Of a stretch of DNA of 41,161 nucleotides, positions 12,503 through 18,605 are shown in pieces (the first letter of the stretch is position 1; each line of letters opens with the position of its first letter). The notes beneath the pieces are model-generated. The model did not search any database. It had not been told where the DNA came from and worked only from the letters and a program-made list of their open reading frames with translations. Both the position numbers and the translations under genes were made by a program. Source of the DNA: Lophium mytilinum (taxonomy: Eukaryota); contig MU004196.1 of NCBI GenBank assembly GCA_010093605.1, positions 1,572,606 through 1,613,766 on the forward strand. Direction: 5' to 3'.

Positions 12503-13621
12503 TCATGTATTCGTCGGGGCGGAGTATCGGTCGATCCACTTGATGGCTTTCATACAAGGCGTCTCGGTATCGGTCTCATCAATAGAACCCATCTTTTTCT
12601 TCGACCCCTCTCCACACGGACTTCTTTGGACGACAGTGAGAAGTACTTGTGCTTTATCCCCGAGAATGTCAGGGTCGGCCAGCATCATTCGAAAGAAAGC
12701 CCAAACCGACTCGTACTGCCATCCCCAACGCAAGGCAACGCTCAAAATCTTGGTAATCAAATCATACTTCCAATCAAGCGACCTCAGATGCTGGAGGAGA
12801 AAGGCAAGGAACGACCACCCGGACGTATCGCTGGGGTTCTTTAGGCACCACTTTTCCGTGTAAGTCGTGGCGGACTCGAGCATGCGTTGGAGGTGGTACA
12901 CCCACGTATTCCCCTCGTCGTCAGTATTCTCGCGGCGGAGTTCGTGGATGATGACTGTGAGCATTGTCCTCGCATGCCGCCAAGCATAATAATTCTTGGG
13001 ATGGCGCTCGCTGGCTTTGAAGACGCAACCTAATTCTGTTTGGATGACCGACCCGGTGAAGTCAAAGTCATCAGCAAGGTCTCGGTGTAAACGCAAGTGC
13101 GAGATGATGTAGCTGCGGTGATGCCAGAGAGTAGGAGATTTGGTCTGCCGATGCAGCGGAGATGTTAAGATGCTATCCAGGAAATCGACTTCTCTCTGCA
13201 GGGCCACGGCTATAGGTTTCCGGTTCTCTTCTGAATATGCTTGTTTGATTTTGTCAATCCTTCTCTTGCGGAAGTTGGCGGCTGTGAGATGCTCTGGGTC
13301 GAATAAGAGGATAATGCGGGTTGATTCTAGGCACAGCTTGGACATGTGAGCTTGGGATGTTCCTAAGCTAAGCTGATATAAACTCACATCTTCGAGATCT
13401 GGGTCATGATTAGTGGCAAAGAACGATTGGCGAGCCTTCAGAAATGCCTGCGTCAGTATCTTCTTTGATACACCGAGGTTGATGCCATCCTGCAACGTCA
13501 AGGTATCCTCAGGCTGCAGCGCAGACGGGATAATCGCGATCTCAACAACGGAACGCTCGTTAGTGGTAAAGAAAGCGTTTAGTTCTTCATAGGCATCGTC
13601 CATCACACGCGATTTAACCAT
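12503..13621 (-). CDS. Protein prenyltransferase alpha-subunit repeat protein (PTAR1/Ecm9-like); probable intron 13387-13337
   Basis: PPTA-type motifs DPEHLTAANFRKR, KSPTLWHHR, ERHPKNYYAWRHAR, NPSDTSGWSFL, YESVWAFFR. Confidence 0.85.
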   Translation of the reverse strand: MVKSRVMDDAYEELNAFFTTNERSVVEIAIIPSALQPEDTLTLQDGINLGVSKKILTQAFLKARQSFFATNHDPDLEDVSLYQLSLGTSQAHMSKLCLESTRIILLFDPEHLTAANFRKRRIDKIKQAYSEENRKPIAVALQREVDFLDSILTSPLHRQTKSPTLWHHRSYIISHLRLHRDLADDFDFTGSVIQTELGCVFKASERHPKNYYAWRHARTMLTVIIHELRRENTDDEGNTWVYHLQRMLESATTYTEKWCLKNPSDTSGWSFLAFLLQHLRSLDWKYDLITKILSVALRWGWQYESVWAFFRMMLADPDILGDKAQVLLTVVQRSPCGEGSKKKMGSIDETDTETPCMKAIKWIDRYSAPTNT

Positions 13622-13785
13622 CCTAGATTCGTGGGATGGGTTAACGACGATGATGCCTGGCCTGGTGTTGAGTTCCCCAAGCGGAGATAATTCGGCCCCT
13701 CCACCTTTCACCTTCAGTCTCGAATTTATGACGCAGCCCCATCTATCACCTCCGCATCCCACACTTCTCGACATCCACAACCACG

Positions 13786-14548
13786 ATGCCGTCTCTGCTA
13801 CTTGTAGTATTCGTGCTACAGCTCGCCCTCCATCTTCTCAACAATGTCGGCGCAAGCTCCGTGAATCAGCTGGTACGCGCGCTCCCACCCATCCTCCCAC
13901 TGAATCTACTGACACGAAACAGCTATGGGTCCTGTACAACAAGCTGCCCACGCCCACCGCCGCAGGGGCCAAAAAGCAAACGATCGCCAAACGCGAAGTG
14001 ATCCGTCTAAAGCGCGAAATGGCGGGCATCTCAGCACAAGACGACTTCGCGCGGTGGGCGAAGGTGCGGCGGCAGCATGACAAGGCTGTTGCGGACTTCG
14101 AGAAGATTGGTATGCACTTATGCACTGACACTAGAAAGATCTATGCTAATGATGTGTGTTCGTGTTTTCAGACGCCAGCCTCCGCACCGCCCAAAACACC
14201 TTCAATACCACTCTCACCACTGTCCGCTGGGTCAGCACCACGGGGCTCCGCTACACACTACAGTTCTGGTATACCAAGCGCGCACTGTTTTGGATCCCGC
14301 GGGGCTGGGTGCCCGGGTATGTGGAGTGGATACTGGCGTTTCCAAGAGCACCGAGAGGGAGTATTAGTATCAATGTGTGGGACGTGGCGTGCGCGAGTTG
14401 TGTGGCCTTGGTGAGCGAAGTTGTTCTCGCTGTGTGGGCGTTGGCAGCCAAGGACAAGGCAGCAGAGAAGGGCGCACAGAATCAGGAGGGGCTAGCCATG
14501 GCGATGCCTGCGATTGAGGGGAGGCGGAATGGGAAGAAGGAGCTGTAG
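13786..14548 (+). CDS. GET1: Get1, ER tail-anchored protein insertase subunit, ~216 aa; join(13786..13872,13923..14109,14172..14548)
   Basis: N-terminal TM segment, coiled coil ISAQDDFARWAKVRRQHDK, FWIPRGWVPGYVEWILAFPRAPRGSISINVW, two canonical introns. Confidence 0.95.
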
Positions 14549-14667
14549 ATACAGCTATGGACTTCAGTTTCACGATGTTACGATAGCGGCACAGATGCAT
14601 CAATACACACACGAAACGATCTTTGAAAAACGATTGATTGTTCCCCTCCGGCAACATCCAGTCCACA

Positions 14668-14778
14668 GGTCTGTCTGCCACCGCTTGGGGTGCTTCGAAT
14701 CATGATCAGAAAAATGAAGTGTTCGTTTTGAACGACTTGGAAAGTCGTTGAGGCCCCTCAAGCGGTGGGAAACAGATG
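14668..14778. mobile_element. MITE-like family copy (~111 bp) downstream of GET1
   Basis: TCTGTCTGCCACCGCTTGGGGTGCTTCGA / TTGAGGCCCCTCAAGCGGTGGGAAACAGATG. Outer arms pair at 16/18. Confidence 0.75.
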
Positions 14779-15417
14779 TGCACCCGAGACTGACGTGGAA
14801 CCACTTCTGAACCTCCTTCAATCCTGAATTCTCTATATACAGATGTCTCTCGCCTTTTAGACGCAAAGTCCTCATAGCTGGAAAGCCAGGACCCAGCAAC
14901 ACGAGTGAGATGACCTTGGCAGGTCGTTGGGCTTATTCTTGGCGTACTTTTTGAACTCGTGAACTATGGGGAAGAAGTATCGCCGAGTCTTCGAAAGCGC
15001 CTGTATCCAGATCTACAAATTTCTACACGTCTAGCTTTTTCGCAGTATGCATCACCAATATGGATGGGTTGGAAGGCGATAGGAGGCGAGGAGCAACTGT
15101 TTGTATCGCTATAGCTTGTGTGTCGTGTGAGATGGTTGGCGAAGTGGTTGGTGTGGGATGTAAAAGTTTGAGAGGCACAAGAGGATGCGAGAAAATTGGG
15201 TAGAGGAGCGGGCCGAGAGTTTTTGCGGTGAGGCTTGGCGCGCACGTGCCCACGCTCCCGCCCCCTGACTTCTGGCCGTAATCCCAGGGCATCTCCATCC
15301 ACTTTCCTACACCAAACATAAGTATGTTTGATACGTATCAATGCCTCACATCTTGCAAGCGAAACATCTTTTCCAGCGTGATTCCATTCTTTTTTATCAA
15401 CCATAGCTTGCTTTACA

Positions 15418-16953
15418 TTATCCTATCAGAATTCCTCTTGCAATCGTCCATTGTCTATTCAACTCGTCAGCTTTACTTGATTCTCACCAGTCTTAGTTCT
15501 TACACATCATCTCCTCCTCTTCGCAAATAGAGAGGGTGAATGGGAATAAACTCACGGCGCGTTCCTCATCCCAAACCGTGTCCTCCTACCCCCAAACGGC
15601 AGAATCCCCAACAGACTCTCTCTTACATATTTCGCGTCGCTTACGCTGCCTACGAGAAACAAGGCCTGTGGTTACGGATCGCGATCAGCAGTCACCTCTA
15701 CGTTCGAGGAAAAGCAAGTCAAACGTACTAGGTGTGGCTCTCCACCTGGGAAGGTTCCAGGGGTACTCAGATGCCCAATCTGCTCAATCTGCGCGCGCAG
15801 GGCGTCTATGAGGATTTGAAATGCGGCGCTTAACAGACCTCTCAATGCATCACTAGTATCTGATCAGCGCCTCTAGTTCTAGGTATTGCATTTACTTACA
15901 TTGACACATTGACCGCAACTCCATCGAAACTAATGTTCCACACCCCATTCTGCGTCCCAAAGTCCGTTAGTATCCTTCCCGTCTCCACACTGATAGTAAT
16001 ACCAAAGCGCTCATCGTTCTCGAAATCTGGGATTGCAGTCCGCAAAGTCGTGGACAAGAGCTGTTCGAGCTTCAATCGTATGTTCAAATCTGTCGCGTGG
16101 ATTGCTTCCGTCGCATTAGCCTGACAGACACTCCCTCAGGCTAGAGTATGTACATACCACCCTCAGTAGTACATCTCCTTAACCCCTGGCCGAAGATTTG
16201 ATAGCCCACCGTGCTCTATCGCCCAGGCCACCTATCATTAGCCAACCCTTTCGCTTTTGGTCTGTTCCGCCAGGGACTCACCACCCTCCCCTCCGAAACC
16301 ACACCAACCACAAATGCATCACCGACCTACACGTCATTAGCTCCAAGCAAGCTCTGGTACCATGTTGCAGTTTGGAGCAAGGCCGTAGCAATCACTCACG
16401 TTCAAGACCCTCTGTGGCCCAGAACTCCAACTCTGGACCATACACTTCGCCACCGCATCCAGCTCCCCCACCACCCTCACTTCAGCCGCACAAACCGACG
16501 CAATCCCATCCGCTACAAGCCTGTTCTTCATCGCCGCCGCCGCCAACTCCACCGGTGGTGGGCTCGAGAAGATCCACCTCGAAGCGAGTTTGAACGCGTC
16601 TAAGTCGATGGCCAGCGCGGTGCAGATGTGCGTGGTCACCAAAGCAATTAGAGGGCCGTAGCTGGTCGTGTATGGTGGTAGGGAAAGCAGGTCAAGCGCG
16701 TCGGCGGGATTGAAATGATGGGCAATTGGGGTGTTTGGGGCGCCGATGCTGCATTGGCGATGTTCGTGCGCTGGGTTTCTACAAAGCGAGATATAGGTTA
16801 CCCCGCCGGGCTGGGGGCGGGGTTGGGAGGCGGAGGAGCTGGAGATGGACGGGATGGAAGGGATGCTGTAGGCGATGTGGGCGATGCTGGAGGATGTTAG
16901 GAATACCGGGATTTGCGGGGAGAGAGGCGGAGGTACTTGGGCTCGCTAGACAT
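15418..16953 (-). CDS. Degenerate Hsp70-like (HSPA12-type, actin-like ATPase fold) protein, ~355 aa, 8 exons: 16953-16937, 16886-16400, 16326-16282, 16215-16158, 16089-15900, 15852-15729, 15665-15556, 15454-15418
   Basis: Seven GT-AG introns with CTRAY branch sites give one open frame of 1068 nt. Contains VVGELDAVA, VGDAFVVGVVSEGRVSTVGYQI, ALFLVGSVSDAKYVRESL and WTIARGILIG* in the order of fungal Hsp70-like motifs. Confidence 0.75.
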
Positions 16954-18605
16954 AGCTATAAAGATAGGATTTGGTATTAGGGGTGATGACATAGCTGGAT
17001 GTGAGATTTTGGAGGATGAGGTTTGAGCTTTTTACTTTCAAAGAACGAGGTGGAGGGCGTAGCGTTTGGATAAGAATGAGGGGTGAGACTTGGTTGAGGT
17101 GGGAGAATCCTGAGTGGTGATGTTCGAAGCACATTCCATCCCGACCTCGATGCAAGCGGAATGTGTGGCGCTCATCGCCTCAAATGCTTGTTACTGTGGC
17201 TGAGGTCGGCTCAAGCTTCCAATGGAACCTTGGGGAGTAAGTATTTGCATATAAGGCGGACGACAATTATCACCTCTACTTTCATCTACCCGTTGAGCCT
17301 CTTATATCCTACGCTCTCTTAATGCTTGCCACCATGCCTCTCGCTTCCTCTACTAGTCCATCATCGTTGCTACATGCCCATTTCCAGCTACCAATCACCA
17401 TTTAACCCATGGAAACGCCGTCTAATACCGACCGCACTATTGGTCTGGGTCTAGAAGAGCTTTATATTGAAACCACCCCTCCCTCGTTCTTTGCGCCAGG
17501 ATCGTCTTCTTCTTTCATTTCCAACCCACAGCCCTCTCGACCACCGACTAGAAAGCAACCAGGCTAGACCTGAATAACTCCCCAAGTCCCGATATCTCAG
17601 ACTCCACCACAGACACGTGGTACAGCCTTTGAGGGATTGCGACTTGCCCACCCAACCCGCTGTCCACATCGCGAAGTTGGATTCTAGCTTTGCAGCTCCC
17701 ATCACCACTTTCGTTTACTTCCCTCACGCCCCATGTACCCTCTTTCAGAACTGGGAGTTGGAGCCAATGGGCTTTTAGCCTCCGAAGGAGTTGGAAACCA
17801 CCTAACAGACACCAGGCACTAACGTGCTCACATTCATGTAGAATGCTTGAGCTTTGAATCCACCAGGGAAGAGATGGGCACAAAACACGTGAAGTACATG
17901 TGACTCATGCGATGCGCTACTAATCTAGGGATATAAAACCTTATTTTCATTCATCATTTCCCAAGAAGCGTGGCGTTCTAGCATCGCGTGCAAACCCGAC
18001 ACTCTGACCTTCCACGGTGTTGGTGCTGTGGGAGCGTCAGTTGCTCTAGCAAACGGATGCTAGGAGCAGACCATGGGAGCGGAGGGCGTGGGAGCAAATT
18101 GGAACGAGGGGGCACATAATAAATGGCTAGGAGGCTGTGAGTTCTCTGCAATAATGATAGTTAGCATCATCCATACAATTCACTACTTAGCAACCGTGGC
18201 CCCGTAGAGTGCCTACAATTTCCAACCACACATGTCAAATCATACCCCAACTTCCACAGCTGACCTCCACCACCGATGAGCTGAGGACGTCGTCAAGCCT
18301 ACCCGCGCTCCGCCCTCCACAGGCCATAGGCAGGGGGGTCCTCCATATATGCCCCACTCCATCAATTCGTTTCATGCTCTTTTTGGATCCCCAACCTCGC
18401 CTCATCAGTCTTTATCGACGTGCAGCTGATGCTGCCGCCATCCACATCGGGTTGGGTCGTGCGGGTGTTGCTCTCCCACGAACCTTCATTGATGTTCCCG
18501 TTCTGAACCTCCACATCATGCGACGCACTCGATATTTTCGATCTCCAAATCCCCTATCTGCTTCCATGGTGCTGAAGACTGCGGCGAAGAGGTTCTTATA
18601 TCTCG

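Follow-up and report, generated by a model that had tools for sequence, protein, structure and literature searches.

In the ribosome-associated complex of fungi, Ssz1 is an Hsp70-fold protein that works as a structural partner and not as a cycling ATPase. The available part of one study names it an atypical Hsp70 bound to Zuo1 (PMC8476630). In the accessible text of another, HSPA12A and HSPA12B are the most diverged human Hsp70s, recognisable by a few motifs only, and HSPA12 homologues are given for vertebrates alone among the genomes examined, three fungi included (PMC2266713). Antisense transcripts and lncRNAs are reported as widespread in fungi in the portions at hand of two further papers (PMC5414199, PMC8113380).

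Here we analyzed a locus of Lophium mytilinum that lies in a 41,161-nt stretch of DNA (the window; all positions are counted from its first letter). The original prediction had described a hidden, expressed gene of eight exons at this locus, encoding a maintained Hsp70/HSPA12-like pseudo-ATPase of 355 aa. The reading that we prefer, with a probability of about 45%, is that of an intact lineage-restricted gene that was silent in the RNA run examined and lies under a spliced antisense RNA. It would be a minus-strand protein-coding gene of about 350-375 codons with six well-signalled short introns. Such a gene would have gone undetected in this run, with the whole locus read from the + strand into a spliced RNA of ~1.8 kb. 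We suppose that it is condition-specific, and that antisense transcription accompanies its silence and may help to cause it.

Exon-intron structure on the minus strand

The eight-exon model was rebuilt by coordinates from the stop-to-stop frames of the minus strand between 15418 and 16953 (Table 1). All four motif-like strings quoted in the original prediction were located in these frames, in the order given there. With the start at ATG 16953 and intron 1 removed as 16906-16839, the rebuilt model encoded 354 aa, and alternative first-intron junctions gave 360 or 353 aa. The predicted length of 355 aa was reached only with a donor placed inside the ATG, which leaves no initial Met. The proposed architecture was borne out for introns 2-7, and the length was corrected to 354 aa.

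Table 1. Features of the locus, in positions of the window
Feature	Position	Strand	Remarks
Observed transcript island	15310-17198	+	antisense to the gene; strand taken from splice signals
50-nt intron (GTATGT...AG)	16146-16195	+	removed in assembled RNA; covered unspliced by no contig
62-nt intron (GTATGT...CTGAC...CAG)	16078-16139	+	retained (depth 11.8) or removed (depth 9.26)
12-nt palindrome GTATGTACATAC	16146-16157	both	its own reverse complement; GTATGT 5' splice site on each strand
GELDAVA	in 202-aa ORF 16337-16945	-	quoted string; stop-to-stop frame
GDAFVVGVVSEGRV/STVGY		-	quoted string; split by a 66-nt intron
FLVGSVSDAKYV	in ORF 15552-15671	-	quoted string
WTIARGI	in ORF 15418-15483	-	quoted string
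Exon 1	16953-16907	-	ATG 16953; start uncertain, annotated model uses ATG 17134
Intron 1, option a	16906-16839	-	donor GTATTC; no nearby branch site; 354 aa
Intron 1, option b	16936-16887	-	donor GTACCT; CTAAC branch; 360 aa
Exon 2	16838-16400	-	eight-exon model; large exon 16400..16945 without intron 1; best codon score of three frames
Intron 2	16399-16327	-	donor GTGAGT
Exon 3 (VGDAFVVGVVSEGRV)	16326-16282	-	between introns 2 and 3; common to annotated model
Intron 3	16281-16216	-	donor GTGAGT
Exon 4 (STVGYQIF...)	16215-16158	-	missing from annotated model
Intron 4	16157-16105	-	donor GTATGT
Exon 5	16104-15900	-	in-frame 0.149 bits/codon; annotated model has 16060-15900 only
Intron 5	15899-15853	-	donor GTAAGT
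Exon 6 (IDALRGLL...EPHL)	15852-15729	-	common to annotated model
Intron 6	15728-15666	-	donor GTACGT
Exon 7 (ALFLVGSVSDAKYVRESL...)	15665-15556	-	annotated model: 15585-15505, other frame
Intron 7	15555-15455	-	donor GTGAGT
Exon 8 (QWTIARGILIG)	15454-15418	-	stop 15420-15418; annotated model: same acceptor, other frame (15452-15429)

Introns 2-7 each have a CTAAT, CTGAT or CTGAC branch site near the AG, in addition to a strong donor. These six uphold the proposal of seven canonical introns; the first intron, with its weak signals, does not, and it removes a conserved segment. The sequence of intron 1 (16906-16839) scored as coding, with 0.435 bits/codon, and its translation includes SIAHIAYS, a stretch also kept by P0002, the relative described below. 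Read without intron 1, the large exon forms part of the 202-aa ORF and carries SIAHIAYS, DLDAF and VVGELDAVAK.

The gene had been called hidden, but the locus is already annotated: KAF2491259.1 (P0001), hypothetical protein BU16DRAFT_596064 of Lophium mytilinum, has 361 aa in 7 exons and is identical to the window across its exons. The annotated model places its exon 1 at 17134-17036, followed by a 90-nt first intron. On the same strand and at the same locus, it has in common with the eight-exon model part of the 202-aa ORF, exons 3 and 6, and the 3' part of exon 5; it differs from that model in having another start, skipping exon 4 and shortening exon 5. Because its last two exons are read in other frames, KAF2491259.1 lacks the FLVGS... 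and WTIARGI strings. At this 3' end, splice signals favor the eight-exon model, whereas the codon score favors the annotated one (-0.139 vs +0.304 bits/codon, from very few codons).

The structure was compared with shuffled sequences under two rules. Under a loose rule, which allows at most 7 introns of 45-150 nt bounded by any GT..AG, dinucleotide shuffles (n=30) threaded 357 +/- 24 codons (minimum 308, maximum 405) and the + strand threaded 399. Since shuffled DNA also threads ~357 codons with any GT..AG, canonical introns joined to an open frame are by themselves not evidence. Under a strict rule, which requires a GTRNGT donor, a CTRAY branch 5-40 nt before the AG and an intron of 45-150 nt, the minus strand threaded 374 codons and the + strand 136, vs 108.5 +/- 27.3 codons and a maximum of 191 in dinucleotide shuffles (n=100). 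Strong minus-strand donors numbered six in 15310-17198, and all six are the donors of introns 2-7; their density is 3.2 per kb in this island, vs 0.78 per kb on the minus strand of the window. The six introns have the consensus donors and branch sites of a protein-coding gene and keep the frame across them. Introns 2-7 form a real exon-intron structure. The measurement also carries a caution of method, as an open frame reached through seven GT..AG introns is achievable in shuffled DNA of this same sequence.

Codon usage was scored as log-odds, with a training set of 3327 codons from 10 window ORFs, of which nine have Pfam matches and the tenth is a 522-aa ORF at 192-1760. The frame of the eight-exon model scored best of the three in 7 of its 8 exons, and negative scores were obtained in exons 7 and 8. 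Over the whole model the score was low, at 26 bits for 351 codons (0.075 bits/codon), where the training ORFs ranged from 0.07 to 0.29.

Spliced RNA from the opposite strand

RNA evidence came from one unstranded run, taken as RNA from a guessed label and available as contigs (93,824 contigs, 32.7 Mb in total). The run behaves as RNA: it gives no cover at 15081-15242 and 17268-17400, and its joints have splice-site ends. None of the seven proposed introns was found as a joint in these contigs, nor were the introns of the annotated model, in a data set from which a rare sense mRNA would drop out. The lack of spliced reads, which the original prediction had named as its own refutation, was the outcome in this one run, and the RNA that was recovered is spliced on the opposite strand.

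Contigs that are ungapped over 15310-16078 (769 nt) and 16196-17198 (1003 nt) run unspliced through introns 1-3 and 5-7 and through the first intron of the annotated model. The only two joints seen in the contigs of the locus are both GT..AG on the + strand. One is the 50-nt intron of Table 1. The other leads from 16078 to 16196 with CTAGA between, which are the letters 16141-16145; we read it as the + strand intron 16078-16139 followed by a 6-nt micro-exon, 16140-16145, with the boundary shifted by one base. Since the depths of the two junction contigs sum to a value that matches the flanks (16.5-18.6), and no contig reads through 16146-16195 unspliced, practically all RNA that crosses this region is spliced on the + strand. 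The + strand intron removed from this RNA contains 38 of the 58 bases of exon 4.

No ATG-led ORF of the spliced RNA is longer than 68 aa (+ strand) or 64 aa (- strand), and Rfam gave no match at E<=1 on 15000-17500. With its strand read from splice signals, the RNA is an opposite-strand transcript that overlaps the gene and has no long ORF, as in an antisense transcript or lncRNA. Only the + strand donor of the palindrome was seen in use; on the minus strand, the palindrome provides the donor of intron 4 in the eight-exon model. We know of no description of one palindrome that gives a GTATGT donor on both strands.

The neighbours of the locus in the window are ordinary housekeeping genes, namely two short-chain dehydrogenases, a kinesin, a prenyltransferase alpha subunit, a CHD5/Get1-like protein, an MFS transporter, mitochondrial ribosomal protein S25, a PPR protein and a fungal transcription factor. 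No Hsp70-like gene was seen elsewhere in the window. On one side, at about 13593-15030 (+), a 4479-nt contig of the same run stops at 15030 and has a depth of about 250; its probable source is the CHD5/Get1-like gene (PF04420 on ORF 13593-14414), expressed >10x above the target locus. On the other side, just past the end of the antisense RNA island, an ATG-led + strand frame starts at 17409 (METPSNTDRTIGLG...). The + strand ORFs beyond 17409 and up to 18649 had no Pfam match, and this frame may be another unannotated or orphan gene.

Conservation of the largest exon

A phmmer search with the 202-aa ORF against 1.84 billion representatives matched 3 proteins. The sole true relative among these representatives was P0002, which falls into one 90% cluster with P0004; P0002 is a metagenome ORF of 202 aa on a JGI/IMG contig of 3918 bases, and P0004 an ORF of 212 aa on one of 7604 bases. 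P0003 (1063 aa, about ten near-identical repeats) was also matched, at E 8.7e-08 over 65 residues, and was set aside as a compositional, low-complexity match. The identity of P0002 to the 202-aa ORF was 47% by phmmer. By tblastn, P0002 aligned to 16894-16394 (-), covering exon 2 only; of the 172 columns, 42% are identical and 99 positive, and the 14 gap positions fall into 4 openings, each of which keeps the frame. Neither Lophium exon 2 nor P0002 has a stop across about 500 nt. A stop-free exon with all gaps in frame is what purifying selection on the frame would leave, and exon 2 accordingly served as coding sequence during most of the period after its divergence from P0002.

In P0002 and P0004, a terminal Gly/Cys-rich tail follows directly on the point where Lophium has intron 2 (VLAVG vs VLN/VG). 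The tail looks like read-through into an intron that starts with GTGGGT, and if so, the position of intron 2 would be conserved. Metagenome contigs were scanned twice, once with P0002 and once with alignment A1 as the query, and no DNA locus for either protein was located.

The other parts of the gene were searched as well. For the exon-5 ORF, no candidate with three common words was present among proteins of 43-139 aa. Residues 216-325 of P0001 matched only themselves among 645 candidates of 198-632 aa, and whole P0001 found only itself among 8000 candidates scored.

The main rival of an intact but silent gene is a recently dead unitary pseudogene, in which the start, the expression or both would have been lost recently while splice signals and frames stayed intact. 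We consider this unlikely. The locus today may on that account yield only non-coding RNA from the + strand, functional or noise. The run contained no sense junction; silence cannot be demonstrated from a single run under a single condition. Ahead of the conserved part of exon 2 there is no in-frame ATG, the Met of P0002 standing at a Leu in Lophium, and the donors of all candidate first introns are weak. The 3' exons, with their weak or even negative codon signal, and the tiny family also fit a dead gene. Against decay stand the six strong donors and their branch sites, all intact, and exons 2-8, which under the eight-exon model contain no frameshift or stop. The frame of exon 2 also survived 4 indels since the split from P0002, and the retention of the largest exon's frame in a second organism argues against an old pseudogene. 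The claim that the gene is maintained, and not a pseudogene, is in these respects supported by its frame-preserving structure and by the conservation of exon 2, and is left unsupported by sense splicing, of which the one run had none.

Possible Hsp70 ancestry and known systems

The rest of the original prediction concerned the identity of the protein. We take "fungal HSPA12-type" to be a database label, and the quoted strings, in their order, their spacing and their flanks, presumably resemble fungal proteins that are labelled HSPA12-like. Sequence comparisons gave no match to Hsp70s. At E<=10, Pfam returned 0 families for all 5 exon ORFs and for P0001 and P0002, and the 3 phmmer matches of the 202-aa ORF among 1.84 billion representatives included 0 Hsp70s. 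A profile of P0001 and P0002 had 5 matches at E<=10 among PDB sequences, the best at 0.31 and none of them Hsp70 or actin. With hhalign, the spliced model reached a probability of 0.1 against an alignment of E. coli DnaK, HscA, HscC and YegD, and pairwise alignments to E. coli Hsp70s gave z values of -0.31 to 1.50 relative to 200 shuffles.

A chain of five motif blocks (phosphate 1, connect 1, phosphate 2, adenosine and connect 2) was built on DnaK, HscA, HscC and YegD. These names of the actin-fold ATPase motifs reportedly go back to Bork, Sander and Valencia in 1992. Five collinear motifs were not detected in the Lophium protein above chance (z=0.94; 162 of 1000 shuffles at least as good), and the controls gave z=8.28 for MreB (0 of 1000 shuffles) and z=4.23 for YegD when left out of the profile. 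The adenosine block alone landed where the original prediction had put it, on LFLVGSVSDAKYVRESLLGI, with a score of 16.2 vs 19.5 for MreB.

Structure prediction gave no confident fold. AlphaFold2 with P0001 and P0002 as a two-sequence input yielded a mean pLDDT of 31.3, with 361 of 361 residues <50, and the Protein Atlas model of P0001 had a pLDDT of 0.29 and TM <=0.31 to unrelated folds. In the Protein Atlas features, whole P0001 scored 0.76-0.78 with MreB, actin, HSP70, FtsA and Ppx-GppA clusters, and one clan (actin/MreB/Hsp70) took in 9 of its 10 best family-bearing matches; a clan score of 0.78 is below the 0.9 bar and within the range reached by shuffled proteins. This lead was not repeated with the conserved 202-aa ORF alone. 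That ORF pointed to plant BAHD transferase fragments at 0.88, which is <0.9, with low recognition (1555) and no Pfam support, and BAHD was rejected as a candidate.

Judged from its sequence, the predicted protein has no recognisable family. The Hsp70/HSPA12 assignment found no support in the Pfam, phmmer, PDB-profile, hhalign, pairwise or motif-chain comparisons, and the description of a catalytically dead ATPase is likewise unsupported. Homology tests are weak once every key residue is replaced, and therefore Hsp70 ancestry is unproven, not refuted; scaffold positions of this kind, named where each key residue differs, are beyond the reach of motif or profile tests. Descent from an Hsp70/actin-like nucleotide-binding domain that has lost its ATP-binding motifs is possible, at somewhat less than even odds. 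If it is true, the protein could act only without nucleotide, as a scaffold or binding partner, and the locus would illustrate in compact form how a dead ATPase fold is retained.

The complete original prediction, namely an expressed pseudo-ATPase with exactly the proposed junctions, appears improbable. Introns 2-7 agree with it by their signals, and the clan lead, the adenosine block and the presumed likeness in string order point the same way. The homology tests were all negative, the clan lead was lost with exon 2 alone, intron 1 cuts out conserved coding sequence, and the length is not the predicted one; in addition, no sense splicing was found, and an intron spliced out of the observed RNA takes in part of exon 4.

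Similarly slim is the chance of a wider scenario, in which a small family of a few fungi has the Hsp70/actin fold, lost all nucleotide motifs before its two members split and was kept coding, and the Lophium copy is gated by the spliced antisense RNA, with one 12-nt palindrome as the 5' splice site of both transcripts. Were Hsp70 descent true, the locus would offer a tractable case of sense and antisense splicing from one palindromic donor.

Least probable is that the + strand RNA, as a lncRNA or through a small ORF, is the true product and the minus-strand frames a by-product: it is the only transcript seen and has two well-formed introns with alternative splicing, but its ORFs are <=68 aa, it matches no Rfam family, and a 202-codon ORF conserved at the protein level and six phase-consistent minus-strand introns would be left unexplained.

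For the intact but silent gene that we prefer, the main import as it stands is one of annotation, in that an orphan fungal gene with a doubtful deposited model is covered by an unannotated spliced antisense RNA. As far as the available parts of the sources go, fungi commonly have orphan genes with doubtful models, and antisense lncRNAs likewise, and the shared palindromic donor is a curiosity.

Compared with the nucleotide-binding domains of Hsp70 and with HSPA12, the Lophium protein presumably has five motif-like stretches in the same order, with like spacing from the FLVG-like to the ARG-like stretch. The weak language-model lead of P0001 is a further likeness to the Hsp70 superfamily. It differs in having no significant sequence, profile or motif match and, at ~354 aa, no substrate-binding domain. 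Ssz1 is a readily recognisable Hsp70 and is conserved across fungi, whereas the Lophium protein is neither. The spliced RNA, which has no long ORF and covers a gene on the opposite strand, resembles the antisense transcripts and lncRNAs of fungi; its regulatory role is putative, and it differs from them in the 12-nt palindrome that stands as a donor on both strands.
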